Shown here piece after piece: positions 4,546-63,866 of a stretch of 64,000 bases of DNA. Within the stretch, counting starts at the first letter, position 1. Every line of letters begins with the position of its first letter. A program made the translations under genes and the position numbers. The notes under the pieces were generated by a model. The model saw only the letters and a list, made by a program, of their open reading frames with translations. It was not told the DNA's origin and did no database searches. The stretch comes from Phycisphaerae bacterium (GTDB lineage: Bacteria; Planctomycetota; Phycisphaerae; SM23-33): the NCBI GenBank assembly GCA_041687095.1, contig JAWLCQ010000004.1:19194-83193 (forward strand). Reading direction: 5' to 3'.

Positions 4546-5904
4546 GTGGAGCATTCCATGGCAGACGACAAAGTGAAGATCATCTTCGACACGGACATCG
4601 GTTCGGACATCGACGACGCGGTCGCCCTGGCGTACCTGCTATCGCAGCCGCGATGCGAACTGCTGGGCATCACCACCGTCACGGGCGAGCCCCTCAAGCG
4701 GGCCGAGATGGCGTCGGCGGTCTGCCGCACCGTCGGGCGCGACGACATCCCCATCCACTCCGGGTGCGCCCAGTCCATGCTCATCCGCATGCGCCAGGAT
4801 AAGGCCCCGCAGGCGGACGCCCTGGGCGGTTGGGACCGGCGGACCGACTTCGCCCCCAACACCGCCATCGAGTTCCTCCGCACCACCATCCGCGCCCACC
4901 CCGGGGAGATCACGCTGCTGGCCGTCGGGCCCATGACCAATCTCGGGGTGCTGTTCGCCCTCGACCCCGAGATCCCCGCCCTGCTCAAGGACCTCGTCCT
5001 CATGTGCGGGCGGTTCTTCACGTGGATGGGCGGGGAGTGGAACGCCATCGGCGACCCGCACGCGACGGCCATCGTGTACGGCAACGGCCAGCAGGCCCGC
5101 CCCCCGCACCACGTGAGCTTCGGGCTCGACGTGACCACCCAGTGCACCCTGCCCGCCGACGAGTGCCGCCAACGTTTCACCGCCAAGGTCCTCAAGCCCG
5201 TCAAGGACTTCGCCGAGGTCTGGTTCAAGCACCGCCCCCACATCACCTTCCACGACCCCCTGGCGGCCGCCTGCGTCTTCGAGCCTGACATCTGCACGTA
5301 CAAGCAGGGCTTCGTCCGCGTCCCGCTGGCCGACCCGACCGCCGGGTGGACGCTGTTCAACGAGGGCAGCCAGGACAAGGCCCATACCGTCGCCCGCGAC
5401 GTGGACAGCAAGCGGTTCTTCGAGCACTACTTCGACCTGGTGAAGTCGGCCGGGTCGCACCGCGGTTGCATGGATGGGGGGGGGGGGGCAGCCGGGGGAT
5501 GCCCCGCCCCCACGCGTTTTCCCGATCGCCACGACCAGGCCCCCGCGAGCCGCCCTCGCCCCCCCGCTTTCGACAGGTTCATCTCCGTCATACGCATCCC
5601 GTTTGATTCCTACGCGGGTGCCGCGGTTTGCGCAGCGAAGCGGCTTGCCTCGTCGGAGCCCTGGCGGAGACGGGAACAACCACGTCAAGCCGACGGTGCG
5701 CACGAACTGCTTGGGATGCGTATCCCGCCTTCGCGGCTGGCTGGAGGCCTGAAGGGTCACCATCAAACAAAACGCCCGCAGGCGAATGCCCGCGGGCGTT
5801 TTGCGGTCCGGAAGAACCCTGTCCAAAAGCGTCGAGACAGCCGACCCAGGGATTCGAACCCTGAACCTCAGCTTTACGAAAGCTGTGCTCTACCGTTGAG
5901 CTAG
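4546..5904 (+). CDS. inosine-uridine preferring nucleoside hydrolase family protein; 3' end unreliable (true C-terminus probably near 5480-5620)
   Basis: N-terminal KIIFDTDIGSDIDDAVALAYLLS (the DxDxxxDD nucleoside hydrolase signature). The ORF only runs to 5904 because of a G13 homopolymer at 5476-5488, and its tail overlaps a tRNA gene. Family length is usually about 310-330 aa. Confidence 0.6.
   Translation: MEHSMADDKVKIIFDTDIGSDIDDAVALAYLLSQPRCELLGITTVTGEPLKRAEMASAVCRTVGRDDIPIHSGCAQSMLIRMRQDKAPQADALGGWDRRTDFAPNTAIEFLRTTIRAHPGEITLLAVGPMTNLGVLFALDPEIPALLKDLVLMCGRFFTWMGGEWNAIGDPHATAIVYGNGQQARPPHHVSFGLDVTTQCTLPADECRQRFTAKVLKPVKDFAEVWFKHRPHITFHDPLAAACVFEPDICTYKQGFVRVPLADPTAGWTLFNEGSQDKAHTVARDVDSKRFFEHYFDLVKSAGSHRGCMDGGGGAAGGCPAPTRFPDRHDQAPASRPRPPAFDRFISVIRIPFDSYAGAAVCAAKRLASSEPWRRREQPRQADGAHELLGMRIPPSRLAGGLKGHHQTKRPQANARGRFAVRKNPVQKRRDSRPRDSNPEPQLYESCALPLS
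5766..5804. terminator. bidirectional rho-independent-type terminator hairpin (12-bp GC-rich stem caaaacgcccgc/gcgggcgttttg)
   Basis: Perfect inverted repeat with a T-run on the minus strand (ttttgtttg) and a short T-run on the plus strand. It lies between the nucleoside hydrolase core and the 3' end of tRNA-Thr. Confidence 0.5.
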
Positions 5905-5910
5905 GTCGGC
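5839..5910 (-). tRNA. tRNA-Thr (anticodon CGU)
   Basis: The reverse complement folds as a canonical cloverleaf: acceptor GCCGACC/GGUCGGC, D-arm GCUC-AACGGUA-GAGC, anticodon stem CAGCU/AGCUG with loop UUCGUAA (anticodon CGU), variable loop AGGUU, T-arm CAGGG-UUCGAAU-CCCUG. CCA is not encoded. Confidence 0.85.
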
Positions 5911-23900: not shown

Positions 23901-26900
23901 TCGTGTACCCCGTCCCGCTCGCCAGCGTCAACGTCAGCGGCTCGTCGGTCTCCTTCACCGAGTCGTTGACCGGGGTGATGGTGATCGTCGTGCTGCCCTG
24001 GCCGTTGGGAATCACCACGCTGCCGGTGAGCGTCTGGCTGTAGTCCCCGCTGTCCGCCAGGCCGCTCACGGTGTAGTTGACCGTCAGGTCCCCGCTCGTG
24101 CCCGTGCGGGTGATCGTGAAGACGCCGTCGTCCGGGCCCGTTTCCGATGCGAAGGCGTCGGTGGCGGTGAGGTTCACCTCGACGGCCCCGTCGTTGTCGG
24201 CGATGTCCACGGTGGCGTGATCGGGCGAGCCCACCGTGTACCCGCTGCCGGAGGCGACCGTCAGCAGCACGGTCTCGTCGGCCTCGGTCTCGGCGTCGTC
24301 CACGGGGGTGACGGTGATCGTGGCGCTGGCCTGCCCGTCCGGAATCACCACGCTGCCCGAGAGCGTCGCGTAGTCCGTCGTGTTCGTCGCCGTCCCGCCG
24401 ATGGTGTAGTTCACCGTCAGGTCCCCGCTCGTCAGAGCCGGGCCGCTCCCGCTCCGCGTCACCGTGAACGTCCCGGTGTCCGGGCCGGTCTCGGAGGCGC
24501 TGGAGTCGGTCGCGACGATGGAGACGGAGGGCACGTCGTCGCTGACGATCGTGACCGTGTCGCTCGCCGGGGAACCGATGCTGTACCCGCCCGAGGCGAG
24601 GGTGAGCACCACGGTCTCGTCGGCCTCGATGTCGCTGTCATCCACGGGCGTGACGGTGATCGTCGCCGAGGTCTGCCCATCGGGGATTACCACGCTGCCC
24701 GAGAGCGTCGCGTAGTCGCTCGTGTTGGTGGCCGTCCCGGCGATGGTGTAGTTCACCGTCAGGTCCCCGCTCGTCAGGGCGGGGCCGCTCCCGCTGCGGG
24801 TCACGGTGAACGTCCCGGTCGTCTGGCCGGCCTCGGTGGCCGTCGCGTCCGTCGCGGTGATCGCCACCGTCGGCACGTCGTCGCTGACGATCGTCACCGT
24901 GTCGCTCGCCGGGGAGCCGATGCTGTACCCGCCCGAGGCGAGGGTGAGCAGCACGGTCTCGTCGGCCTCGATGTCGCTGTCGTCCACGGGCGTGATCGTG
25001 ATGACCGCATTCGCCTGACCGTCCGGGATGGTCACGCTGCCCGACAGCGTCGAGTAGTCGGTCGTATTCGTGGCCGTCCCGGCGATCGTGTAGTTCACCG
25101 TCAGGTCCCCACTCGTCAGGGCGGGGCCGCTCCCGCTGCGGGTCACGGTGAACGTCCCGGTCGTCTGGCCGGCCTCGGTGGCCGTCGCGTCGGTGGCGGT
25201 GATCGTCACCGTCGGCACGTCGTCGCTGACGATCGTCACCGTGTCGCTCGCCGGGGAGCCGATGCTGTACCCGCCCGAGGCGAGGGTGAGCAGCACGGTC
25301 TCGTCGGCCTCGATGTCGCTGTCATCCACGGGCGTGACGGTGATCGTCGCCGAGGTCTGCCCATCGGGGATCACCACGCTGCCCGACAGCGTCGCGTAGT
25401 CGCTCGTGTTGGTGGCCGTCCCGGCGATCGTGTAGTTCACCGTCAGGTCGCCCTGGGTGGCGGTGCGGGTCACGGTGAACGTCCCGGTGGTCGGTCCGGC
25501 CTCGGTGGCGGAGGCATCCGTCGCCGTCAGCGTCACCGTGTCCAGGTCGTCGCTGACGATTGTCACCGTGCCTCCCGCGGGAGACCCGACGTTGTACGCC
25601 GCATCGGCCGACAGGGTGAGGACGAGGGTCTCGTCGGGCTCGATGGCCGAGTCGTCGACGGGGGTGATGGTGATCGTCGCCGACGCCTGCCCGTCGGGGA
25701 TGGTGATGGTCCCGCTGAGGGTCTCGCTGTAGTCCCCGCTGCTCGCCGTCCCCCCGACCGTGTAGCGGACCACCAGGTCCCCGCTGGTCGGCCCGGTGCG
25801 GGTCACGGTGAAGGTGCCCGTGGTGGGCCCGGCCTCGGTGGCGATGGGGTCGGTGGCCTCGATCGTGACGGTGGGCCGCAGGACGCGGGTGAAGACGATC
25901 TGCGAGCTTCCGACCTGCGGGTCGTAGGTCTGGGTCTTGGCGGCGTCGAGGTAGATGGTGCCGCTGAAGACCGCCTCCTCGGGGGCGGAGTTGATCGTGA
26001 GGGTGTACCCGCCCAGCAGCAGGTTCGTGCCGCTCGCCATGTCCAACCCGCCGATCACGGTATTGCCCATGAGCTTCCACAGGCCCTGCTGCCGCATGGT
26101 GACCTGGACCTTGCTCATGTCCTCCGCGAGGAACTGGTAGGCGTAGTCGTCCACGGTATCGCCGTAGCGGTTGGCGAAATCGATGACCAGTTCGCCCTGC
26201 CGCGGCCCCTCGGACCCGGCCTGCTTGTAGACCGAGCCCGCGGCCGCCTTGGCGCTGAACCCCCCGCCCGTGCCCGCCTTGGCGGACAGGGTCCCGGTGA
26301 AGTTGGCGAAGGTGCTCGCCGAGCCGGTGAGGATGACGGCGAGGCGTCCGCCGCCGCCGTTATTGGTGTTGGACCCGCCGAGGGAGTTCCCCCCCGCGGT
26401 TTCGATGGCGCCCGAACCGGAGAGGCTGCCGGTCTCGAGGTACACGCTGCCGCCCGCGGCCGCCCGCGAGTACGTCGCCGTCGGGGCGTCCACGTTCGCC
26501 AGGATGCTCCCGTTGATTGTGCTGGTTCCGTTGACGACGAGGAAGACCGAGCCGCCCCCCGAGAAGTTCGTCGCGCTGACCGACCCCCCGCCCGTGCCGT
26601 GGTAGAGCGGCATGAACGGATCGTCGTAGGGCGTGGCGGGGTAGCTGCTCCGCCCGCCGTGCGTCCCCCCGCCGTTGTAGTTCGGCTTGCCCTCGACGTA
26701 GCCCTTGCTCGTCACGTCGATGGACACCCCACTCGCCACCGTGAGGTTCCCGTACACCATGGCGTTGAGGCGGTACTCGTCGCGGCCGGACTCGCTGTAG
26801 CCCTTGGTGTTGGCGATATGCGTCCACTTGCCGCCCTGGAGATCCACGTTGCCCGAGACGTAGAACGTCGTGAACGTGGAGGAGAAGGTCGAGTACGTCG

Positions 26901-36030: not shown

Positions 36031-37368
36031 CTACCGCTGGTAGATCGGGACGATCTGGTACGCCGGGGTCAGCGCCAGGATCGACAGGGCGGTGGTGTAG
36101 GCGGGGCCGCTCCAGTGGTCGCTGTCGATGACCCCGCTCCGCCGCGGCGGATGGACCCAGGCGCCCTGGTCGTTCTGGTTGGCGAGGAAGATCTCGGCGA
36201 GCTGCGAGTAGAACCGCCGCCAGTGCTCCCCCCCGAGTTGGAACGTGCCCTGCGAGGCGTGGTACATCGCGTAGAAGTACCGCTCCGCCCCCGGGACCGT
36301 GCTGCCGTAGGAGGCGGGGTTGTTCGCCAGGATCCAGTCCCCCGCCGCCTTCGCCACCGGCAGCCCGTGCCTCCCCCCCATCGCCAGCGCCAGCATCCCC
36401 GCCCCCGCCATCGCCCGGTTCGGCCGCTCGGGGGTCTGCGGGGCGTAGATGAACGTCCCGTACGACGGGACGAAGCACCGCCCCACGAACCCCGCCGAAT
36501 CGTCCACGCTCTTGACGGGCACGTCGAACCCGGCGTTCTCGGCCGAGCGGAGGAAGCACATCATCCAGCAGGTGACGGACAGGTCCGAGTCGCACTCCCC
36601 GAAGCTGCCCGGAACGATGTACCGCCACGCCCCGCGGTCCAGAACGCGGCGCTTGGGCTGCTGGTACTGCAGGTCGATGGAGTACTTCAGCGCCCGCTCG
36701 ACGGCCGGTCGGATCCGCAGCGCCCGCTCGCGGTCCGTCATCCCGTAGACCTCGGCGAGGAAGATCCCGGCGATTCCGTGGCTGTACGTCGAGTGGGTGT
36801 AGCGGAAGCGGGAGAGCAGCCCGTCGGACTGCTGGGAGTCCAGGACGTAGTCGATGGCGCGGTTGAGGTGCTCCCCGTAGGGCCCCTGCCCCGGGACGTG
36901 CCCCGCCGCCAGCAGCGCCATCCCGCACAGCGCGGTCACGCCCGGCTGGGACTTGGAGTTGCCCGACTGGAACTGCCCATCCCGAAGCTGCTGCGTGACG
37001 AGGAACGCCAGCGCCCGCTCGACGGACTGGTCCACCCGCCGCCACGTGAGGGCGTCGACGGCGTCCTGGGGGGCGGACTGCGGGGGCTCCTGCGCGAGGG
37101 CGGACGAGGCGACAGACAGCAGGAAGAGGAGGGCAACCGCCACCACCCCAGGTGCGCGAGGCGCGAGCGGGGAGGCAGTGGGGCAATTTCCAATTTCCAA
37201 TTTCCAATTTCCAATTGGTTTGAAGACTGTTCCACAAACCGATTTCCACCGCAGAGAACGCGAAGATCGCAAAGGAGACTGGGCGTAGACAAAGGGAGTC
37301 CCACTCCCCCTCTGCGGCCGTTGCGACCTTTGCGGTGGGTTCTGAAGCAGTCTCTTGGCGGGCTTCAC
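36031..37368 (-). CDS. secreted prenyltransferase/squalene-oxidase-repeat (terpenoid cyclase-like alpha/alpha toroid) protein; start codon uncertain
   Basis: Repeated QxxDGxF/W-type motifs (QLRDGQFQSG, SQQSDGLLS, NQNDQGAWV). Hydrophobic signal-like segment VVAVALLFLLSVASSALAQ. The track start at 37368 is a GTG. A (CAATTTC)n repeat lies between that start and the signal peptide. Confidence 0.6.
   Translation of the reverse strand: MKPAKRLLQNPPQRSQRPQRGSGTPFVYAQSPLRSSRSLRWKSVCGTVFKPIGNWKLEIGNCPTASPLAPRAPGVVAVALLFLLSVASSALAQEPPQSAPQDAVDALTWRRVDQSVERALAFLVTQQLRDGQFQSGNSKSQPGVTALCGMALLAAGHVPGQGPYGEHLNRAIDYVLDSQQSDGLLSRFRYTHSTYSHGIAGIFLAEVYGMTDRERALRIRPAVERALKYSIDLQYQQPKRRVLDRGAWRYIVPGSFGECDSDLSVTCWMMCFLRSAENAGFDVPVKSVDDSAGFVGRCFVPSYGTFIYAPQTPERPNRAMAGAGMLALAMGGRHGLPVAKAAGDWILANNPASYGSTVPGAERYFYAMYHASQGTFQLGGEHWRRFYSQLAEIFLANQNDQGAWVHPPRRSGVIDSDHWSGPAYTTALSILALTPAYQIVPIYQR
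37184..37216. repeat. heptanucleotide microsatellite (CAATTTC)x4 plus a partial unit
   Basis: Perfect tandem heptamers, AT-rich in a roughly 70% GC background, in the 5' region of the prenyltransferase-like gene. Confidence 0.9.
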
Positions 37369-37371
37369 GGA

Positions 37372-40300
37372 TCACTCTCCTCTCGCGTCGGGGTCGGTCT
37401 CGACGGTGTCGGCGAGGCGGCGGTAGTAGTCATCGATGGCGCGGCGGTACTGTTCGGGGGGATCGGCGGAACGGCCCTGTTTGAGCCCGTCGCGGAGGCG
37501 GGAGACAAAGAGGTTCCACTTCTTTCGCCGCGCCTCGACGAGGGTCTTCTCCCAGGTCTGCAGCTCGACGCGTTTCCAGGCGTCGAGCTTGTTGCGGATG
37601 GACTGGGCAAGGTTCTGGGCGTTCTGCCCGGTCTGCTGAGCGAGGGCGGAGGCGGCGGCCATGGCGGACCCGGCCCCGCTGCCCGCGCCCGATCCCCCGC
37701 CCATCCCCCCGCCCTCTCCCGGGTTGTTCGGCATCCAGTCCTGCATGACCTGGATGTTCAGCCGCACGCCCGCCAGGCCCAGCAGTTCGGCCGCGTCGCG
37801 CTCGTGCTGGAGCATCCGCAGGATGGCCTCCAGGTCCGGGGCGATGGGCGGCTGCGCCCCGCGCATCCGTTCCTCCAGGAGCGTCAGCAGGTCGTCGAAG
37901 ATCTGCTCCGCCAGGGCGAAGGCGTCGACGGTGGATTGCTGGATGCGGTGGGCGTCGTCGAGCTTGCCCTCGTGCAGGGCAGAGGCGGTCTCGGAGTGCA
38001 GCTTGGCGATGTCCTCCTTGACGAGGCGTTGGAGGTCGTCGGCCTTGGTGGGGATGGGGGGGTCGGCGTCGGCGAGGTTATAGGCGACGTCGAGGAGCTT
38101 CCAGGCGAGGACGGCGGTGTCCTCCTCGAGGAGGATCAATTGGGCGGTGGCGATGGCGGCGAAGTCCTCGGTCTCGAGGGCCTGGAGGCGGGCGACGAGG
38201 GCTTCCTGCTCGCGGAGCATGCGGAGGGTCTCGCGGACGCGGCGGTCGGCGTAGATGGCGACCTCTCCGTCGTTGGGATCGGAGAAGGCGACGGTGTCGG
38301 CGGCGGTCCCCAGGAGGCGCATCTCCTCCAGGAGCTTCTCCGACAGCTCCAGGGCCTTGTTGGGGTCCGCGGGGAGCGTGGCGGCGAGTTCGCCGGCGTG
38401 CTGGGCGACGCTCTTGGCGAGGGCGGCCATGGCGTCGGTGGGCTCGATGGCGAGCGTCGACTGCCGGGGTCGCCAGACCACCGCGTTGTCGTACAACTGG
38501 CTCGCCGCCTGGGCGAGCTGCGCCTGCTCGGTGGCGATGTCCCGGGCGTGCTTGTCGAGGAGGGGCTTGCGTTTCTCGGGCGTGTCGGCCGACTGCCAGG
38601 CGGCGGTGTCGGCGAGCAGGGCCTGCTGGCGGCGGGCGAGGAGCGTGAGCTGGTCGCGGAGGGTGTCGGCGGACTGGCGCTGCATCGCCATGAACCGCCG
38701 CATGAGTTCCGGGTCCTCCGCGAGCAGCCGGGCGAGTTCCTCCATGAGTCTCCGCAGGTCCTCGTAGTACTTCTGGACGGCCTTGGCGAACTCGTCGTCG
38801 ACCTCGACCATCTTCCCGGTCCGCGGGTTGATGCGGTTCCGCTGCGCCTGGAGGAAGGCGTTCATGTCCTCGACGAGGATGCGGTGCATCTTCGCGATGT
38901 GTTCGAGATCGTCGGCGCGCTTCTCCTCGTTGGCGATCCGCTCATAGGCCTTGGTGAGTTCGACGAGTTTGGAGCGGGCGCGGCGGATGTGGAACAGCGC
39001 CTGCGTGAGGGGCTCGGCCATCTCGGCGGGGCTCTTGGTGAGCTTGCCCGCCGCGTCGAGGTTCTCGGCGGCGGGGACGACGTCGGAGATCCCGATGTCC
39101 TCCAGTTGCAGGGAGATCATGGCGTAGGGCGTGTTGGCCGCCTTGTGCTTGAGTTCCTCGATGAGCTTGGCGGCGGATTGGAGGCGCTTTCGGCCGCCCT
39201 TGAGCAGCGTGCCCTGCTCGGCGGTCCACTTGGGGAGGGACGGGACCGCGGTGTGCAGGGCGGTGGTCGCCTCCTCGGCGGCGGCGAGTTCGGTATCGAG
39301 GGCCTTGAGGTAGCGGGCGATGTCCAGGCGGAGCTTCTCGCGCTTCTGGGCGTCGTTGTGCTGGGCCCACTCGTCGATCTGGATGCGGTGCTTGGGCGAC
39401 TCCGCGCGCGGGGGCTTCCCCCCGGGCAGCGATCGCATCTGCATGTCGTTGGGCGGGGGCGAGTTCTCCGGGGCCTGGGGGTCCTGGGGATCCCGCTCGC
39501 CCCCCGAGGTCTGCGAATCCCGCGAGTTCGGATCGGTGCTGCTGGAGTTCGGGTCCTGCTCCCCGCCCGGGGGGCAACTGCTCCCGCCCGAGTTGGGATC
39601 GGAGGGACTGCTCGATTGCGATCCGCTGCTGCCCGAGTTGGGGTCGGACGGGCTGCTCGACTGCCCCCCGCTGCTGGAGTTCGGGTCCTGCGGGTTGCCC
39701 GACTGGCTGTTACCCGAGTTCGGGTCGGAAGGACTGCCGGACTGCCCGCTACGGGAGTTGGGGTCCGACGGGCTGCCCGATTGACCACTGCGCGAGTTCG
39801 GGTCAGAGGGACTGCCCGATTGGCCGCTACGGGAGTTGGGGTCCTGCGGGTTCCCGGGCTGCCCCCCCTGGGAGTTCGCGTCCTGCGGATCGCCCGACGC
39901 GTTCGATTGGCCGGAAGGGGACAGCTGCGGGTTCCCGTTCTGCCCCGACTGGGAGCCCTGATTCCCGACTGCGTTGGGGTCCTGCGGACCGCCCTGGTTG
40001 GGGTTCTGCTGCGTCAGGTCGGTGGGGTCCTGCGGGTCACCCTGCGTGCCCCCGCGCGTGTCGCCCTGGGTGGACTGGACGGCGTCGCGGGCGCGGAGGA
40101 CGTACTCCACGCGGTCCCCATGCTTCACCTGCAGCGCCTGCAGGTCCAGGTTGACCGCCCCCGCCATCTGCAGGGGCGGGGGCAGATTGGGGTCGGGGTC
40201 GAGGGACTTGAGGAAGGTCCGGGGCTGCTCTCCCTCGCGGGAGATGGTGACGGCGAGTTCGAGCCCGAGGATCCCGAAGTCGTCCTGCGCCTCGTAATGG

Positions 40301-46832: not shown

Positions 46833-47743
46833 CGGCTCTTCACCCGCGCCATGCGGCGGCTGAGGTAGTACCCGATCATCTGCCCGATGGGCTGATGCGT
46901 GACGACGGGCGTGTAGTCGCACTTCGCCTGGGCGCAGCCGCTCTGCAGGCGGTCGAGGAACGCCCGCACCCGCTCCAGGTAACGCTTGCGGATCATCGCG
47001 GGGTCGAGGTCCATCCGCCACTCGGGCGCTTCGAGGCACTCGAAGCGCGACCAGCTCTTGAAGGAGAACGACAACTCCTCGGGCGCCATCACGTGCACCA
47101 GCCACGGTTCGTGCCCGCGGACGGACAGGAGGCGGAGGGAGTCCAGCAGCGCGTCCTCGTCCTCGAAGGCGTCGGTGAGGACCAGGACCAGCCCGCGGCG
47201 GCGGAGGCGCTTGCCCACGTCCCGCAGGACCCCCGCGAGAGACGTCCGCCCCCCCGCACGGACGTTCTCGAGGTTCTCCACCAGCGCGCGGAAATGCCCG
47301 GGGTGGGCGCGGGGCGGGACGAAGGACCGCACGCGCTCATCGGCGACGGCGAGCCCGACCGCGTCGCGCTGGTGCAGCAGCAGGCGGGAGAGGCTCGCCG
47401 CCAGCACCTGCGCGTAGCGGAGCTTGCTCACCGTCTCCATCCCGAACCCCATCGACCCGCTGCCGTCCACCACCAGCATCGCCTGGAGGTTCGTCTCCTC
47501 CTCGAACTGCTTGATGTGGTAGCGGTCGCTCCGCGCGAACAGCCGCCAGTCGATCAGCCGCACCTCGTCCCCCGGGGAGTACGGGCGGTGCTCGGCGAAC
47601 TCGACGCACCCGCCCTTGAAGGGCGAGCGGTGCATCCCCGCGAGGTACCCCTCGACGATCCGCGTCGCCACCACGTCCAGGTGCCCGATCTCCCCGAGCA
47701 CCTGCCCGTCGACGATCCCCGCTTGCGTCCGATTCTCGCTCAT
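46829..47743 (-). CDS. DUF58 family protein (MoxR-associated, VWA-like fold)
   Basis: The DUF58 core SPFKGGCVEFAEHRPYSPGDEVRLIDWRLFARSDRYHIKQFEEE is characteristic. Lies directly downstream of the MoxR ATPase gene. Confidence 0.8.
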   Translation of the reverse strand: MSENRTQAGIVDGQVLGEIGHLDVVATRIVEGYLAGMHRSPFKGGCVEFAEHRPYSPGDEVRLIDWRLFARSDRYHIKQFEEETNLQAMLVVDGSGSMGFGMETVSKLRYAQVLAASLSRLLLHQRDAVGLAVADERVRSFVPPRAHPGHFRALVENLENVRAGGRTSLAGVLRDVGKRLRRRGLVLVLTDAFEDEDALLDSLRLLSVRGHEPWLVHVMAPEELSFSFKSWSRFECLEAPEWRMDLDPAMIRKRYLERVRAFLDRLQSGCAQAKCDYTPVVTHQPIGQMIGYYLSRRMARVKSR

Positions 47744-47766
47744 TGGCCCGTGCCTCTCGCGGATAC

Positions 47767-47822
47767 TGGTTCATTGGTTGACTGGTTGACTGGTTGATTG
47801 GTTGATTGGTTGATCGGTTGAC
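47767..47822. repeat. octanucleotide tandem repeat (TGGTTGAY)x7 in the moxR-DUF58 intergenic region
   Basis: tggttcat tggttgac tggttgac tggttgat tggttgat tggttgat cggttgac, followed by an inverted partial copy (cagtcaaccagttcacc) about 60 bp away. It lies 25-80 bp upstream of the DUF58 ATG. Confidence 0.9.
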
Positions 47823-47902
47823 TGGGCAAGGAACCGATTGCTCCATTGCCTCACCGTGTACTCGCCGGTGAGTCCATCACCCAGTCAACCAGTTCACCAT
47901 TC

Positions 47903-48934
47903 TCAAGCCTTCGCCATCGCCGGCAGGAGGGACTTGGCGCTGCGGAGGATTTCGACGATGAGGTCGTCCGCCGTCCGCCCCGCCGCCTCCGCGCTGAAGC
48001 TGGGGATCACGCGGTGGCGGAGCACGGGACCGGCCATGGCGACGACGTCCTCGGTCGTCGCGTGGCAGCGCCCGTGCAGGACCGCGCGGGCCTTGGCGGC
48101 GAGCAGGAGGTAGATGCTCGCGCGGGGCCCGGCGCCCCAGGCGATGAGGTTCTCCAGCCCGCTGGGCATGGCCCCCTCGTTCGGCCGCGTCATCCTCGCC
48201 AGGCCCACCGCGAAGCGGTAGACGTGCTCGCCCACGAGGACCCTGGGGATGATCTTCTGGATGCGCTCGATGTCCGCCCCGCTGAGGACCTCGGTAACGG
48301 TGGCGGCGTACTCGGTGGTCTGGCGCTTGGCGATCTCGATCTCTTCGAGTTCGCTGGGGTAGCCTACCTGGATCTTGAGCATGAACCGGTCGAGCTGCGC
48401 CTCGGGCAGCGGGTACGTGCCCTCCTGCTCGATGGGGTTCTGCGTCGCCAGGACGAAGAACGGGTGGGGCAGCGGGTAGGTGTTGCCCCCCACCGTGAGC
48501 TGCCGCTCCTGCATTGCCTCCAGCAGGGCGCTCTGCGTCTTGGGGGGCGTGCGGTTGACCTCGTCGGCGAGCAGGAGGTTGGCGAAGAGCGGGCCCGGGA
48601 CGAAGCGGAAGGCCCGCCGGCCCGTGGTGTGGTCCTCCTCCAGCACGTCGGTCCCGGTGATGTCGGCGGGCATGAGGTCGGGAGTGAACTGGATGCGCCC
48701 GAACTTCAGCCCCAGCGCCCGCCCCAGCGACGAGACGAGCATCGTCTTGGCGAGGCCCGGGACGCCCTCGAGAATGCAGTGCCCGTGGCACAGCAGGGCG
48801 ATGGTGAGCTGCTCGATCACGTCGTCGAGCCCCACGATCACGCCCCGCAACTGCCCCACGATCCGCTCGTACGCCGCGTGGATCTCCTCGACCGCCTGCA
48901 CCTGCGCCCCGCTGTCCTGACTGCCCGTAGTCAC
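47903..48934 (-). CDS. MoxR-family AAA+ ATPase
   Basis: Walker A GVPGLAKT, Walker B LLADEVNR, and strong overall MoxR/RavA similarity (…LATQNPIEQEGTYPLPEAQLDRF…). GTG start at 48934 with AAAGGAG upstream; the track ORF extends to 49075. Confidence 0.85.
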   Translation of the reverse strand: MTTGSQDSGAQVQAVEEIHAAYERIVGQLRGVIVGLDDVIEQLTIALLCHGHCILEGVPGLAKTMLVSSLGRALGLKFGRIQFTPDLMPADITGTDVLEEDHTTGRRAFRFVPGPLFANLLLADEVNRTPPKTQSALLEAMQERQLTVGGNTYPLPHPFFVLATQNPIEQEGTYPLPEAQLDRFMLKIQVGYPSELEEIEIAKRQTTEYAATVTEVLSGADIERIQKIIPRVLVGEHVYRFAVGLARMTRPNEGAMPSGLENLIAWGAGPRASIYLLLAAKARAVLHGRCHATTEDVVAMAGPVLRHRVIPSFSAEAAGRTADDLIVEILRSAKSLLPAMAKA

Positions 48935-55036: not shown

Positions 55037-55225
55037 TTTCATCCTGCGATTCGGTCCCACTCAGGACACCACCCTACGCTGGGTGCCACGGCTGCGCCGT
55101 CCGCAGCCGTGTCGTCCTGCCAGCATGGCTGCGGATGGCGCAGCCGTGGCACCCGGGCCGTGGCACACCCGGGCCACTGGGACTTCTGAAGACGCAATAG
55201 AATAGGGCGTGCCCAGGGAGACGCG

Positions 55226-58947: not shown

Positions 58948-60432
58948 TCACCGCCCGCGGAACGTCAGCGACGGGTCCACGGGGGGGCGCGGGTGCAGCA
59001 GGTGCACCACCCGCGACGCCAGGTAACCCACCAGCACGCACGTCACGAGCCCCACTGCCGCCAGGAGCAGCCCGTGCACCAGCGCGAGCCGCTGCACCAC
59101 CACCACCGCCCCCGCCGACGCCCCCGCCCCGATCAGCGCCCCCACGCCGTTGGCGCGGCGGAGGAAGATGCCCAGCACGAACAGCCCGCCCAACGCCCCA
59201 CCGAACAGCCCCAGAATCTCGTAGAAGAAGTCCAACGCCGACCCCACGTCCATCCTCGCCACCCCCACCGCCGCCCCCGTCGCCACCGCGCCCGACACCA
59301 CCGTCGTCCATCGGGCGAACCGCATGCAGTCTCGCTCCGAGGGGGCGCGGCGGAGGCGGCGGTAGAAGTCCGTCGTCACCGCCGTCGCCACCGCGTTCAT
59401 CCCGCTGTCGATGGACGACATGGCGGCCGCGAAGATCCCGGCGATGACCAGGCCCGACACCCCGACGGGCATCTGGTGGACGACGAAGTACGGGAGGATG
59501 GCGTCGGGACGGAGGTCCGGGGGCAACGCCCCGGGATGCTCGCCATAGAACGCGAACAGCGCCGTCCCCAGGAAGAAGAACAAAAACCCCGTGGGGATCC
59601 CCAGCAGCGCGCTCGTCCACGCCGCCCGCTTCGCCGCCCGCACGTCCGGCGTCACCAGGTACCGCTGCACCACGTCCTGCTGCGCCGTGTTGGGCGAGAC
59701 GGCGAACAAGGCCCCGCCCAGGATCAGCACCCACACCGAGAGCACTCGCGGGCTGCCCGACCAGTCGGGCGTGTAGAACTTGCCGTTCGCCTCCCCGATG
59801 CGCACGATGCCCGCCAGGCCGCCCTCGACGTTCCCCGCCACGATCGCCAGCGCCAGCACCGCCCCGCCCGTCAGCACGACGACCTGGACCACGTCCGTCC
59901 ACACCACCGCCTCGATGCCCCCCAGCACCGTATACGCCGTCGCCAGCACGCCCATGGCGAGGATGCAGGCGTACACGTCCCACCCCGTCGCCGCGTGCAG
60001 CGCCAGCGAGGGCAGGTACAGCACGATCGCCATCCGCCAGAACTGGAACAGCACGAACCACACCGAGGCGAACCAGCGGGCGGCGAGGTTGAAGCGGGCC
60101 TCGAGGTACTCATACGCCGTCGTGATGTTCAGGCGACGGTAGAAGGGGATGTAGACCAGGACGACAAGCGGCACGACCAGGAGCTGCGCGAGCGTGTACA
60201 CGAGCATCGTCCAGTCGCCCGTGTAGGCCTTGCCGGGCACGGCCATGTACGTGATCGCGCTGAGCCCGCCCCCGAAGATGCTCAGCCCCGCCGCCCACCA
60301 GGGGATGCGGCGCCCGGCGAGGAAGTAGTCGTCCGTGCTCCGCTCCCGCCGCGCGAACACCGCCCCCATCGCCACCATCGCCAGCAGGTAGCCCACCAGG
60401 ACCAGCCCGTCAATCCAGGTGAAGTGGGTCAT
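58948..60432 (-). CDS. sodium:solute symporter (SSS) family transporter
   Basis: 494 aa with about 13 hydrophobic segments. SSS-type N-terminus (DYFLAGRRIPWWAAGLSIFGGGLSAITYMAVPGKAY) and overall family pattern. Confidence 0.8.
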   Translation of the reverse strand: MTHFTWIDGLVLVGYLLAMVAMGAVFARRERSTDDYFLAGRRIPWWAAGLSIFGGGLSAITYMAVPGKAYTGDWTMLVYTLAQLLVVPLVVLVYIPFYRRLNITTAYEYLEARFNLAARWFASVWFVLFQFWRMAIVLYLPSLALHAATGWDVYACILAMGVLATAYTVLGGIEAVVWTDVVQVVVLTGGAVLALAIVAGNVEGGLAGIVRIGEANGKFYTPDWSGSPRVLSVWVLILGGALFAVSPNTAQQDVVQRYLVTPDVRAAKRAAWTSALLGIPTGFLFFFLGTALFAFYGEHPGALPPDLRPDAILPYFVVHQMPVGVSGLVIAGIFAAAMSSIDSGMNAVATAVTTDFYRRLRRAPSERDCMRFARWTTVVSGAVATGAAVGVARMDVGSALDFFYEILGLFGGALGGLFVLGIFLRRANGVGALIGAGASAGAVVVVQRLALVHGLLLAAVGLVTCVLVGYLASRVVHLLHPRPPVDPSLTFRGR

Positions 60433-60484
60433 GCCTTCCTTCCGTCATCCCAAGCGTACCGGGAACCCGTTTCACCGCGGAGAG

Positions 60485-60640
60485 CGCAGGGAGAGGAAAG
60501 GCACTAGGGACTAGGGACTAGGGACTAGGGACTAGGGACTAGGGAAGAAGAAGCACCGAAGCATGACGTTGCCTCTTCCGCTTCTTCTGCCTATTCCCTA
60601 GTGCCTATTCCCTAGTGCCTCTCCTCTGCGATCTCTGCGG
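60485..60640. repeat. ~155-bp imperfect palindrome whose left arm carries (ACTAGGG)x8 (60504-60559) and whose right arm carries (GCCTATTCCCTAGT)x2
   Basis: Left arm gagaggaaaggc(actaggg)8aagaagaag; right arm cttcttctgcctattccctagtgcctattccctagtgcctctcctc (reverse complement gaggagaggcactagggaataggcactagggaataggcagaagaag). It lies between the sulfatase stop and the SSS transporter start. Confidence 0.85.
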
Positions 60641-60652
60641 TGAACGCCTCCG

Positions 60653-62110
60653 TCACGCCAACCCGTTGGGGTGCGCTTCCAGGAACTCCGCGTGCTGCTT
60701 GCGCCCGGTCTCGCGGAGGCGCTTGGCGTACTTCTCCAGGCTGCTGCGGGTGTGGAACGGACCGCCCTCGCGGAGAACCTCCCACAGCGGGTCCCCGTAG
60801 GGCCGGCCCGCGAGCATCTCGGTCGTCCACTCCTCCAGCAGCCGCGAGCCGTGATCCACCAGGTCCTGGCGGGACGGGGCGAGGTCGTTCAGCTCGTGGG
60901 GGTCGGCGGCGAGGTCGAAGACCATCTTCTCGCGGAGGTTCTTGAGGCCCGTGTCCCACGTGCGGCAGAAGAGGTTGTCGCCCCAGCGGACGGACCGCAT
61001 GCACGACCACGCCATCTGCGAGAACACCACGTACTCCCGCCCGCCGTCGGTTCCCTTGCGGAAGGCGTCGGCGTAGCTGCGCCCGTCCCAGCACGCGGGC
61101 ACCTCCCCGCCGAGCAGCTCCACGAGCGTCGCGGCGATGTCGCACTGGTTGTACAGGCCCTTGTCCACGCGCCCCCCGGGCATGCCGGGGTAGCGGACGA
61201 TCATCGGGACGCGCGAGGTGATGTGGTCGGCCGTCGCGTGGTCGCCGATCACGCCCAGCTCGCCCATGTTCTCCCCGTGGTCGCTGGTCATGATGACGAT
61301 GGTGTCGTCGAGGACGCCCTTGTCGGCGAGGGCGTTGAGGACGCGCCCGCACCACTCGTCGGCGTAGCGGATGCCGGTGTCGTACCCGTTGACCCAGGTG
61401 CGGTAGTCGTCCATGGACGCGATCTGGCTGGGCTGGCGGGGGTGTCCGGGCGGGGTGGGCGCCCCGTAGCTCCCGCCCGGTTCCTGCGGGGTCCCGGGCC
61501 CGAAGCTGTTCCACTGCTGCTGGCGGAGTTCCTCGGTGTACCACCCGGCGAGGGGCTCGTCGGCGAAGGGGTCCCCGAACTCCTGCGGCGTGCGGTAGAC
61601 CGTGTGCGGGTCCCAGATGTTGATGTGCAGCATCCAGTCGGGGCGCTCGGCGTTGCGGTCGATCCAGTCCAGGGCCAGCGGCACGATCTGGTCCGCCCGC
61701 TCGCTCCCGCAGTAGCCCGTGTTGACCATCTCGTGCCACCCCGCGTAGAACCACCACGCCGAGTGCCGCTCCGCGAACGGGCTGAACGACACCGGGTAGA
61801 TGCCCCGCCCGCGGAGCAGCTCGATGAACTCCGGCCGCTGCCAGCGCGTCTGGAAACCGCGCTCGCGCCCCATGGGCCGCAGGTCCGCCTGCAAGCCCCC
61901 ATGGTTCACCACGCCCGTGTGGATGCCGAACTGCCCCGTGAACATGCTCGCCCGCGAGGGCAGGCAGGGGGCGTCGGAGACGTAGCAGTTCTCGAACCGT
62001 ACGCCCTCGGCGGCGATGCGGTCGAGGTTGGGGGTCGTGTTGCGGTGGTAGCCATAGCAGCCCAGATGATCCGCCCGGGTGGTGTCAACGTCGAGGTACA
62101 GGATACGCAC
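60653..62110 (-). CDS. sulfatase (arylsulfatase-family, formylglycine-dependent), no signal peptide
   Basis: N-terminal MRILYLDVDTTRADHLGCYGY and the FGly signature C-L-P-S-R in SDAPCLPSRASMFTGQ; metal-ligand Asp residues present. Confidence 0.8.
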   Translation of the reverse strand: MRILYLDVDTTRADHLGCYGYHRNTTPNLDRIAAEGVRFENCYVSDAPCLPSRASMFTGQFGIHTGVVNHGGLQADLRPMGRERGFQTRWQRPEFIELLRGRGIYPVSFSPFAERHSAWWFYAGWHEMVNTGYCGSERADQIVPLALDWIDRNAERPDWMLHINIWDPHTVYRTPQEFGDPFADEPLAGWYTEELRQQQWNSFGPGTPQEPGGSYGAPTPPGHPRQPSQIASMDDYRTWVNGYDTGIRYADEWCGRVLNALADKGVLDDTIVIMTSDHGENMGELGVIGDHATADHITSRVPMIVRYPGMPGGRVDKGLYNQCDIAATLVELLGGEVPACWDGRSYADAFRKGTDGGREYVVFSQMAWSCMRSVRWGDNLFCRTWDTGLKNLREKMVFDLAADPHELNDLAPSRQDLVDHGSRLLEEWTTEMLAGRPYGDPLWEVLREGGPFHTRSSLEKYAKRLRETGRKQHAEFLEAHPNGLA

Positions 62111-62177: not shown

Positions 62178-62491
62178 GGGGGGAATTTCGGATTTGGGAA
62201 TTCGGATTTCGGATTTGCGTGGGTGTTGATCGGGGTCCCCTCCGCGGAAGCGGGTCTTTCACTCGCTCCAGGATTGAGCGGGGATGAACGCAGATGAACG
62301 CGGATAGAGGGAAGGCGGGGATACAGGGGATGAGAGTGACAATCAACTCCCATCCCTTGCATCCCCGCTCTCTCTTCCTCATCTGGTTCATCTGCGTTCA
62401 TCCCCGCCAAGTCTTCATCCGCGGAGGGAAGCCTGGACTGCCACCCACGCAAATCCGAATTCCGAAATCCCAAATCCGAAATCCCGAATCC
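62178..62491. mobile_element. ~315-bp non-coding long imperfect palindrome (MITE/BIME-like) with ~45-bp terminal inverted repeats built from degenerate ATTTCGG/ATTTGGG/AATTCGG heptamers
   Basis: Left end gggaatttcggatttgggaattcggatttcggatttgcgtgggtg. Right end cacccacgcaaatccgaattccgaaatcccaaatccgaaatcccgaatccc (its reverse complement matches the left end). Inner perfect inverted repeat gcggggatgaacgcagatgaac / gttcatctgcgttcatccccgc. No plausible ORF inside. Confidence 0.4.
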
Positions 62492-63697
62492 CTACATCCG
62501 GTCCAGCGTTCCCAGCGTCGGGTGCTGGTGGGGGAAAAGCACCTCGGTGAGGGCCCAGCCGTCGCCCGTGGGGCGCATGGAATTGGCCTCGAGGACCTCG
62601 TGCGGGTCGTCGGTGCCCAGGACCAGTTGGGCCACCCCGTGCCCCGCCGCCAGCGTGTGCTTCGTGCGCACCGGGTCGGTCACGCACACCGTCCCCCCGT
62701 CGATCCGCAGGCCCACCCTCTCACGCTCGTCGCTCACCAGCAGCGTCCCCGACCAGTCGTCCAGGTGCGACGCCTTCACGCGGCGGGACAGCTCGGGGGC
62801 GACGTGCTCCAGCGTCTGGCGGAGGTTGACCACGTGCATCATCGCCCCCCCGCTGCGGACGTAGTTGACCTTCGCCGTGCAGTTCCCGCGGCGGAGGCGG
62901 CGGCACAGGTCGCTCGCGTAGTGCAGGTCGCTGAAGGTCACCTCGCCCCAGCCGTTGTGCCTCGCCAGGCGATGCACCACGCGGAGCACCTGCTCCACGT
63001 CGCCCGCGTGATCGACGATCTCGCTGCCCTTGTTCACCACCCAGCCCGCCACCTTGCCCCCCGCGTCCGTCCACAGCAGGCCCTCCAGGCTGTGGTTGGG
63101 GAAGGGCACGCCGCGGAACGTCGGCCGGACGGCCGTGCCCGTGCGGACGCGGTTCTCGCGGTTGTACAGGGCCGCCAGGTCCTCGCGGTGCTTGACGGCG
63201 AACTTGCGGGTCCCCCGCTCGGGGGCCTCCGAGGGCAGGTGCGGGGTGGCGACGGTGTAGGTGGTCGCGTTCCACGCGCGGACGTACCCGAAGCGGTGGT
63301 AGAAGTCGTGGATGCCGTACAGCAGCGTCGCGTCGTAGCCCAGCGGGGCCATCGCCTCCATGCCCGCCTTCGCCGTCTCGGCCATCAGCCCGCGCTGGCG
63401 GTAGTCCCCGTGCGTCGCCACCGCCCCAATGCCCACCACGCGGATGGCCGCCGCCCCCACGCGCATGGCGAGGTCCCACGCGCCCCAGTGCGTCACGATC
63501 CGCCCGTCGAGGATCCCGATCCGCGACGCCTTCCAGTCGTAGTTCGCCCCCCCGAGGATGTACCCGCCCCGGCAGCGGTCGCGGAATGGATAGTACCCGT
63601 TGTGGGAGAAGACCTTGCACACCAGGTCGATCATCTCCTCGGCGTGCGCGTCGGGGTCCGGTGCGATCAGTTGCATCTGCTGCTCATGCTTCGCCAT
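62492..63697 (-). CDS. GNAT-family N-acetyltransferase, Eis-like (GNAT plus C-terminal SCP2-like region)
   Basis: Start at MAKHEQQMQ (ATG 63697) within track ORF 62492..63790. Acetyl-CoA-binding block HGDYRQRGLMAETAKAGMEA (R-x-x-G-x-A). Length and overall architecture resemble Eis. Confidence 0.65.
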   Translation of the reverse strand: MAKHEQQMQLIAPDPDAHAEEMIDLVCKVFSHNGYYPFRDRCRGGYILGGANYDWKASRIGILDGRIVTHWGAWDLAMRVGAAAIRVVGIGAVATHGDYRQRGLMAETAKAGMEAMAPLGYDATLLYGIHDFYHRFGYVRAWNATTYTVATPHLPSEAPERGTRKFAVKHREDLAALYNRENRVRTGTAVRPTFRGVPFPNHSLEGLLWTDAGGKVAGWVVNKGSEIVDHAGDVEQVLRVVHRLARHNGWGEVTFSDLHYASDLCRRLRRGNCTAKVNYVRSGGAMMHVVNLRQTLEHVAPELSRRVKASHLDDWSGTLLVSDERERVGLRIDGGTVCVTDPVRTKHTLAAGHGVAQLVLGTDDPHEVLEANSMRPTGDGWALTEVLFPHQHPTLGTLDRM

Positions 63698-63866
63698 GGG
63701 CGTCTCCGCAGTGGGGGAACGGTCACTTTCAGGATAGATCGGGCGGATCACCGCCCTGCAGGAGAAAAGATTCCCTGCGATCCGATTCAAAGTCCCCCCC
63801 TCCCCGTGCCGATACTCCCTATGTCCCGGAACGCTCCGGGACCTAGGCGCTGGTAAGGAGCCCGTC

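Follow-up and report, generated by a model that had tools for sequence, protein, structure and literature searches.

The palindrome between the sulfatase gene and the SSS sodium:solute symporter gene, in the 64-kb stretch of DNA analysed here (the window), is, on the evidence of its sequence, a further example of a described and widespread class of intergenic G-rich heptamer SSRs, with a different unit. We consider it on balance probable that the element is an inverted pair of (GGGANTN)n-type arrays within a 174-bp palindrome, built by slippage and forming, once transcribed between the two cistrons, a stem-loop whose post-transcriptional effect would be modest at best. Most likely, it is neither a canonical intrinsic terminator nor a promoter-spacing switch.

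An inverted-repeat search gives the full extent of the imperfect palindrome as 60471–60644 (Table 1). The palindrome originally described as 155 bp in length is real but larger, reaching ∼174 bp once its outer and inner stems are counted. Its left arm is a perfect tandem array, as had been stated, but consists of six ACTAGGG units rather than eight; eight is the total for both strands (six from the left arm plus two from the right). TRF calls this array at 60499–60545 with a period of 7, 6.7 copies and 97% matches. The right arm, previously read as two 14-bp units, holds 2.4 perfect copies of TGCCTATTCCCTAG (TRF period 14, 100% matches, 60588–60620), but the 14-mer is itself made of two diverged heptamers: its reverse complement is GGGAATA followed by GGCACTA, both of the GGGACTA type. 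The arms are reverse-complementary as predicted, at 82–89% in the inverted-repeat search (89% over 38 nt for 60492–60529 against 60590–60627), and arm-to-arm alignment shows the left arm to be longer than the right by about two heptamers.

Table 1. Features of the palindrome and its surroundings (positions are those of the window)
Feature	Positions	Strand	Details
Array (CAATTTC)x4.7	37184–37216		
Array (ACTGGTTG)x7.6	47765–47825		Partner at 47877–47904
SSS sodium:solute symporter gene	58948–60432	−	494 aa; PF00474, E = 8.8e-53; ATG at 60430–60432
Left outer stem, TTCACCGCGGAGAGCGCAG	60471–60489		Non-repetitive; pairs with 60626–60644 (19 nt, 89%); paired in all folds
Purine-rich linker, GGAGAGGAAAGGC	60490–60502		Partner GCCTCTCCTCT at 60617–60627
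Left arm, (ACTAGGG)x6	60503–60544	+	Exact units; (GGGACTA)n in G-first phase
Left inner stem, GGAAGAAGAAGC	60543–60554		12 nt, 92% complementary to 60580–60591
Unique apex	60555–60579		Small 6-bp stem-loop in the folds; minus-strand stem 60575–60558
Right inner stem, GCTTCTTCTGCC	60580–60591		Partner of 60543–60554
Right arm, 2.4 x TGCCTATTCCCTAG	60588–60620	−	GGGAATA and GGCACTA alternating
Right outer stem, CTGCGATCTCTGCGGTGAA	60626–60644		Partner of 60471–60489
Sulfatase gene	60653–62110	−	485 aa; PF00884, E = 7.7e-41; stop codon at 60653–60655; GC3 0.97
Sister palindrome	62180–62485		∼310 nt, in the next spacer (GNAT–sulfatase); GGGATTT/CGGATTT heptamer outer arms, inner GATGAACGCA repeats
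GNAT-domain gene	62492–63790	−	Upstream of the sulfatase gene

Both RNA and DNA folding return the single long hairpin that had been foreseen, and it is much more stable than those of shuffled sequences. The minimum free energy is −116.2 kcal/mol for the minus-strand (coding-sense) RNA (z = −6.95), −114.4 kcal/mol for the plus-strand RNA (z = −8.2) and −63 kcal/mol for the DNA (z = −9.1). A search of Rfam at the gathering threshold gave nothing at the palindrome, the sole match being a tRNA at 5839–5910. An assembly artefact is unlikely: the flanking ORFs are both intact and collinear, and complete genomes among the matches show the same architecture.

The palindrome sits, as originally described, between the sulfatase stop codon and the SSS start codon, but more tightly than the 45 bp and 50 bp first given, since the base of the hairpin lies 8 nt past the stop and 38 nt before the ATG. 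Measured from the arrays, the distances are 33 nt between the right arm and the sulfatase stop and 71 nt between the left array and the SSS ATG, the latter falling to 38 nt when the outer stem is included. A Shine–Dalgarno-like GGAAGGAAGG is found just 5′ of this ATG, outside the hairpin. The GNAT, sulfatase and SSS genes follow one another co-directionally in that order on the minus strand, with GC3 values of 0.95–0.97. The host DNA has a GC content of 69% and its best named homologues are from Phycisphaerae/Planctomycetota.

A sister palindrome occupies the next spacer, starting at the GNAT stop codon. Its inverted repeats extend over 44 nt at 93% and 22 nt at 100%, and it folds with −232.7 kcal/mol (z = −16.3). 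Altogether, the window carries four or five short-period arrays whose units are all different, every element having its own unit and its own interior; no second copy of ACTAGGG is present in the 64 kb outside the palindrome. The SSS protein sequence is found in one NCBI contig only, the next homologue being 68% identical, and exact-protein look-ups for the SSS and sulfatase proteins returned no gene records. A unique 31-mer across the junction gave no match in metagenome contigs. The five nearest SSS homologues (62–68% identity) have MurQ-like and AnmK genes or unrelated genes as neighbours, never a sulfatase; their upstream spacers contain no heptamers and their loci as a whole are almost devoid of heptamer arrays.

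These surroundings bear on the idea that a miniature mobile element (MITE, foldback or REP-like) was inserted into a once-tight sulfatase–SSS junction, which we regard as quite improbable. The palindrome does run into non-repetitive outer and inner stems, the uniform G-first polarity described below recalls fixed terminal inverted repeats and the distribution of the arrays is patchy and lineage-specific, as also found by Rehm et al. (2015; PMC4692102). In addition, the stem motif CACCGCRGAGANCGC recurs at 37247. However, the unit has no second copy in the window, the elements of the window differ in both unit and interior, and heptamer arrays were not associated with IS elements or transposons in the genomes surveyed by Rehm and coworkers (PMC4692102). 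The flanking direct repeat is at chance level: a target-site duplication formed by the flanks TCCGTCATCCCAA…AACCCGTT on the left and TCCGTCACGCCAACCCGTT on the right, over the sulfatase stop codon, was rejected because 8% of shuffles and 28% of random genomic pairs attain its score of 10. The CACCGC motif likewise failed as a family motif; it is data-derived and marginal, its three matches being the two stems of the palindrome itself and 37247, and one in 100 shuffles reaches three.

The original prediction also assigned functions, with the hairpin terminating sulfatase transcription and changes in unit number tuning the SSS promoter as in a contingency locus. Like an intrinsic terminator, the palindrome places a GC-containing stem-loop directly 3′ of a stop codon, here that of the sulfatase gene; unlike one, it lacks a U-tract, its stem is about ten times the usual length and members of its class are found in essential operons. 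Neither strand carries a T/U-tract after the hairpin, and the sole hit in a terminator scan is the small apical stem, with the poor tail GGTGCTTCTT. Some hairpins without U-tracts do serve as terminators in GC-rich bacteria, which leaves the model some room. On the promoter side, a scan covering the sigma-70 type only found zero sigma-70-like sites in 60200–60900, and the array, which is part of the stem, is separated from the ATG by over 70 nt. Given the lack of a T-tract and of promoter hexamers, neither a canonical terminator role nor the variable-promoter role is supported. Heptamer-array length does differ between related Xanthomonas species, as the model would have it, but the array-associated genes of Xanthomonas and Nostoc are neither surface genes nor contingency genes, no link between the arrays and phase variation was found, and such variation was judged unlikely (PMC4692102). 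The class is, moreover, depleted from divergent intergenic regions, where promoters lie, and four of its members are found within co-transcribed pairs of ribosomal-protein or nusA-operon genes (see below). In light of these observations, we consider the terminator/promoter model very unlikely.

The class to which we assign the palindrome was characterized by Rehm et al. (2015, PLoS One; PMC4692102) and is defined by a 7-nt unit that has G at positions 1–3, A at 4 and T at 6 and occurs in two or more copies (≥14 bp). A further criterion of the class is a G-strand 5′ end no more than about 50 nt away from the neighbouring ORF, to be compared with the 33 nt of the right arm and the 71 or 38 nt of the left array given above. 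Arrays of GGGAATC, or more generally (GGGANTN)n, were described in two Xanthomonas genomes and arrays of GGGGA(C/T)T in Nostoc PCC 7120 (PMC4692102). Arrays of the class comprise two to 26 units, and each Xanthomonas genome has 183–186 of them; 89–93% of arrays are intergenic, and most lie between aligned ORFs and only 7–8% between divergent ORFs, at a mean distance of 28 nt from the 5′ ORF and 160 nt from the downstream ORF (PMC4692102). Convergent pairs of arrays on opposite strands, capable of forming stem-loops, number 70–75 per genome, most of the repeats are transcribed, and array length varies extensively between the two species; four-unit arrays are favoured in Xanthomonas and the flanks are more stable (PMC4692102). 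No regulatory role was identified in Xanthomonas or Nostoc and no link to phase variation was found (PMC4692102). According to a Nostoc preprint, heptamer arrays have modest effects in reporter assays that depend on context and are seen on deletion of the arrays.

Our assignment rests on the agreement of GGGACTA and GGGAATA with the (GGGANTN) consensus and on matching positional features. GGGACTA is repeated six times at 60503–60544 and GGGAATA/GGCACTA occur on the other strand at 60588–60620; both neighbouring genes are on the minus strand, so that the ORFs are aligned; and the arms form a convergent pair, G-rich on the plus strand and then G-rich on the minus strand. Like the arrays of Rehm et al. 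(2015), the element is therefore intergenic and has a G-tract heptamer with A4 and T6 in an inverted convergent pair. It differs in its unit, GGGACTA with GGGAATA and GGCACTA, which makes it CTAG-bearing, in its non-repeat outer and inner stems, in the 69% GC of its host and in that ACTAGGG arrays have no four-unit preference among the matches listed. Exact GGGAATC, the operational screen used for Xanthomonas, is absent from the palindrome, which carries GGGAATA and GGGACTA instead; the palindrome is thus a unit variant and not a member of the strict Xanthomonas family. Its richness in CTAG, pointed out in the original prediction, is borne out: the window has 15 CTAG sites where 76 ± 8 are expected, a depletion of about five-fold, and eight of the 15 fall in a single 112-nt portion of the palindrome (Poisson P ∼5e-18 at the window rate).

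Several other repeat classes resemble the palindrome in part. Tandem heptanucleotides in non-coding DNA are also the hallmark of the STRRs of heterocystous cyanobacteria, which occur in about 100 copies per genome and whose definition does not include hairpin pairs. The cyanobacterial STRR heptamers, such as STRR1 (CCCCAGT), were reportedly described by Mazel and colleagues in 1990. CCCTAGT is one base away from CCCCAGT, and the two are mixed within single arms at two of the matching loci (L026 and L098). Identity with the STRRs was rejected nevertheless on account of this one-base difference and of a 69% GC host with planctomycete-like homologues. REP/BIME elements are imperfect palindromes at gene 3′ ends or between co-transcribed genes; they are transcribed and can shield upstream mRNA from 3′ exonucleases. 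REPs are 20–40 nt long, with one conserved sequence per genome, a GTAG head and a link to RAYT transposases. The palindrome shares with them its intergenic location at a gene 3′ end and its imperfect symmetry, and they provide a working analogy for its mechanism, but its arms are tandem repeats, its interior is unique and no sister copy of it was detected in the window. Three tandem heptanucleotides are known from Calothrix PCC 7601, in so far as they are cited in PMC4692102. According to the summary in PMC4679880, Mrazek et al. (2007) described long SSRs with units of 5–11 nt, heptamers being the commonest, that are intergenic and phylogenetically scattered, and proposed slippage as their origin. 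The intergenic TAACTGA repeats (MacGregor, 2015; PMC4679880) are direct, with one inverted case, and lie one to a few nucleotides upstream of start codons. Both they and the long SSRs resemble the class seen in the window in being intergenic, phylogenetically scattered and present in ribosomal-protein operons; the TAACTGA repeats differ from the palindrome in being direct, start-codon-proximal and not G-rich.

The expectation that (ACTAGGG)n would recur elsewhere was confirmed. A scan for (ACTAGGG)x3, using one genome per species, found at least 120 loci, so that arrays of three or more units occur in at least 120 genomes from many phyla. The hosts among the matches listed include Acidobacteriota, cyanobacteria, Gemmatimonadota, Gammaproteobacteria, Planctomycetota, Chloroflexota and others. 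Non-redundant heptamer arrays among these matches number 211, of which 106 are ACTAGGG and ∼105 have other units, the latter being chance neighbours in the same 8-kb neighbourhoods; TRF assigns a period of 7 to 217 of the 284 good arrays in this set. Where an array has a reverse-complement partner no more than 350 nt away we refer to it as a hairpin-type element, and 50 such heptamer elements are present among the matches listed. Four of them fall within the Pfam-confirmed gene pairs S12–S7, L35–L20, L30–L15 and RimP–NusA (again among the matches listed). Since these are classic co-transcribed pairs, the class is tolerated inside polycistronic mRNAs and cannot generally terminate transcription efficiently.

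The composition of the arms points to the way in which they arose. Within each arm of the palindrome the repeats are 97–100% identical, compared with 82–89% between arms. Among the matches listed, only ten of 37 inverted pairs have exactly complementary consensus units and ten of 37 have equal copy numbers, with a within-arm identity of ∼91%. Arms that are uniform inside and diverged from each other are the signature of independent slippage and not of a palindrome kept perfect by selection or templated correction. In the scenario that we favour, each arm would grow and homogenize on its own by replication slippage, the left with a 7-nt and the right with a 14-nt period. The palindrome would then be transcribed with its neighbours, co-transcription of the three genes being suggested by their orientation, and the mRNA would form a stem-loop of about 65 paired positions reaching from 8 nt past the sulfatase stop to 38 nt before the SSS start, with the putative Shine–Dalgarno sequence of SSS left free outside. 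Such a structure might act, by analogy with REP elements, as a barrier to 3′-to-5′ exonucleases that shields the sulfatase cistron; it might also be a target of RNase III or a partial attenuator uncoupling sulfatase from transporter levels.

The failure to keep the arms complementary fits neutrality as well as it fits weak function. A neutral or selfish by-product of slippage and occasional inverted duplication, functionless and surviving where it does little harm (3′ ends and intercistronic spacers), is therefore a possibility to be taken seriously, although we judge it less probable than not. To look for selection at the RNA level, sense and antisense folds were compared for 22 co-directional elements among the matches listed: the sense RNA folded better in 14 cases and worse in eight (median difference −3 kcal/mol; Wilcoxon p = 0.11), and G·U pairs showed a weak trend in these elements (11.3% in sense and 9.0% in antisense). 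As this sense-strand advantage is not significant, the purely neutral reading is a strong rival. It is further favoured by the divergence and unequal copy number of the arms, by nearest relatives that lack the element at loci with almost no heptamer arrays, and by the finding of no function in Xanthomonas or Nostoc (PMC4692102). The copy numbers of ACTAGGG arrays among the matches listed (67 loci with three units, 25 with four, seven with five, five with six and so on, as well as one array of 82 copies) decay smoothly, with no preferred length and no peak at four units, and the scarcity of arrays in ORFs and between divergent genes matches the outcome expected of purifying selection against harm. 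Neutrality does not readily account for the four-unit preference and the greater flanking stability in Xanthomonas (PMC4692102), for the reporter effects of heptamer-array deletion (Nostoc preprint) or for the retention of arrays where CTAG is otherwise purged about five-fold. The strand asymmetry of the hairpin-type elements, to which we now turn, also demands either a polar process or selection.

Among the matches listed, the G-rich arm is 5′ in 41 hairpin-type elements and the C-rich arm in six, with three ties (p = 1.8e-7), and the palindrome in the window has its G-rich arm 5′, as do 41 of the 47 skewed elements. Plain non-SSR hairpins from the same loci show a polarity of 45:45 among the matches listed (Fisher p = 1.4e-5 against 41:6), from which it follows that G-first polarity is specific to microsatellite hairpins. 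A generic cause such as Rho avoidance or an RNA-hairpin effect is weakened by the same 45:45 ratio. A look-up of both polarities in viral contigs gave zero matches. Placement relative to genes is also non-random: 70 arrays among the matches listed lie between co-directional genes, 30 between convergent and 12 between divergent genes, where the background counts are 267, 69 and 80 (p = 0.014), that is, with enrichment between convergent genes and depletion between divergent ones. Hairpins between co-directional genes begin ∼0–20 nt past the upstream stop codon among the matches listed. Of 86 simple arrays among these matches, 66 have the G-strand 5′ end closer to an ORF than the other end and 20 have it farther away (medians 12.5 and 109.5 nt, p = 6.7e-7). 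Genes at the listed loci were called with a crude ORF/GC3 heuristic that was checked on the 64-kb window only. In Xanthomonas the convergent arrangement had been noted and left without an explanation (Rehm et al., 2015; PMC4692102).

Both the G-first polarity and the way in which the G-strand 5′ end abuts ORF boundaries are missing from ordinary hairpins. The G-first polarity suggests a polar generating process, for example fold-back synthesis in which the G-rich strand is nascent. Inverted pairs of heptamer arrays, including the palindrome, might then be the traces left by a polar DNA transaction rather than by symmetric slippage, an idea that we put forward as speculative and rather unlikely. 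It draws on the 5′ position of the G-rich arm at 41:6 across phyla and unrelated units, on the 45:45 ratio of plain hairpins and on the 66:20 bias of the G-strand 5′ end towards ORFs. Possible candidates are fold-back synthesis by intrastrand template switching with the G-rich strand nascent, or the addition of G-rich repeats to 3′ ends at both sides of a break.

The G-tracts themselves could matter through DNA structure. The left arm contains a canonical G-quadruplex motif (G3N4 x6, 60507–60544) on the plus strand, which is the template strand of the flanking genes, and a quadruplex formed there by (GGGACTA)6, with an i-motif or cruciform opposite, might modulate RNA polymerase or a binding protein. 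Related GGGAATC and GGGGAYT oligonucleotides fold into G-quadruplexes in vitro and their C-strands into i-motifs (PMC4692102), and, in work that PMC4692102 cites, a template-strand quadruplex can hinder transcription in Escherichia coli reporters. The right arm, however, retains just two intact GGG tracts, which leaves the pair asymmetric in this respect, and the quadruplex would face competition from the duplex or hairpin. Many hairpins of the same architecture among the matches listed have units without a G-tract (for example ATTTTGG, AATTGAA and GAGTTAG); together with the lack of a four-unit peak in the ACTAGGG arrays listed, this indicates that a quadruplex role is not general for the architecture. 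We regard such a role as unlikely.

These results remove the unsupported account of a terminator combined with a phase-variable promoter, and the locus joins a known class of microsatellites. This class, detailed to date in Xanthomonas and Nostoc, also includes arrays of GGGACTA, a unit that carries CTAG, in Acidobacteriota, Gemmatimonadota, Planctomycetota, Gammaproteobacteria, cyanobacteria and others, and tolerates insertion within ribosomal-protein and nusA operons. The G-first polarity, which is missing from ordinary hairpins, offers a testable clue to the origin of such repeats; a polar transaction, if true, would be an undescribed and widely shared mechanism that makes palindromes at the ends of bacterial genes.

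Polarity was counted among the matches listed from a scan for (ACTAGGG)x3 in one genome per species (loci L001-L120, from at least 120 matching loci). In heptamer-array hairpins the G-rich arm lay at the 5' side 41 times and at the 3' side six times (41:6), and plain hairpins from the same listed loci gave 45:45, following no such rule. Simple arrays had the 5' end of their G-strand next to the nearest ORF in a ratio of 66:20, again among the matches listed, and within this set both the G-first rule and the abutment on ORFs were seen across phyla and with many different repeat units. The longest array by far among the matches listed comes from Pseudomaricurvus sp. HS19 (L076, NZ_WVVW01000018.1, 4415-4988), where ACTAGGG is repeated perfectly 82 times over 574 bp.

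Hairpin-type heptamer elements are also placed within operon gene pairs, and the four loci concerned (L096, L098, L003 and L120; see table) belong to unrelated bacteria.

Repeats and hairpins in the window, and heptamer elements within operon gene pairs at scan loci
Locus	Positions	Feature	Setting
Window	24247-25701	Tandem repeat, 342-bp period, 4.3 copies, 85% matches, GC-rich	
Window	37184-37340	Perfect (CAATTTC)x4.7 array, then compound hairpin containing 9-nt repeats of the CCTTTGCGA type	
Window	39586-39883	Repeat block, 39/78/117-bp period, GC-rich	
Window	47765-47825	Octamer array (ACTGGTTG)x7.6	
Window	47877-47904	Reverse-complement partner (CCCAGTCAACCAGT) of octamer array	~50-90 nt downstream of array
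Window	55081-55154	Near-perfect hairpin, 31-nt arms, 94% complementary, 12-nt loop, no microsatellite arms	
Window	62180-62485	Second palindrome, far larger than the sulfatase-SSS element	GNAT-sulfatase spacer
L096	1392-1484	Hairpin-type heptamer element	S12-S7 intercistronic spacer
L098	6329-6419	Hairpin-type heptamer element	L35-L20 intercistronic spacer
L003	208-299	Hairpin-type heptamer element	L30-L15 intercistronic spacer
L120	3478-3637	Hairpin-type heptamer element	RimP-NusA intercistronic spacer

The second palindrome begins at the GNAT stop codon and folds as a single hairpin of ~310 nt (-232.7 kcal/mol, z = -16.3), with GGGATTT/CGGATTT heptamers forming the outer arms and GATGAACGCA repeats contained in the inner stems. 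The sulfatase gene is therefore flanked by two such elements, one in each adjoining spacer.

Elsewhere in the window, the octamer pair is likewise G-first, its array starting ~20 nt from the apparent start codon (CAT, 47742-47744) of a minus-strand gene. The compound hairpin contains CACCGCAGAGAACGC, which is similar to the outer stems of the sulfatase-SSS element, a likeness only marginally above chance. The hairpin lacking microsatellite arms occupies a spacer between divergent genes according to our gene calls. The two GC-rich repeats are presumably located in large repetitive protein genes. Near the window start, small repeats and a palindrome are found a second time 1871 bp further on (749-939 versus 2620-2810; 1748-1785 versus 3619-3656), which suggests a tandem duplication of ~1.9 kb involving paralogous genes.

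Of the five closest relatives compared, four have the orthologous SSS transporter gene adjoining a MurQ-like SIS-domain gene (L121-L124, the loci of the nearest homologues), and three of these four also carry an AnmK gene alongside. This MurQ-like/AnmK neighbourhood is not retained around the SSS gene in the window; its presence beside the orthologues hints at a role for the transporter in the uptake of anhydro-MurNAc or amino sugars.
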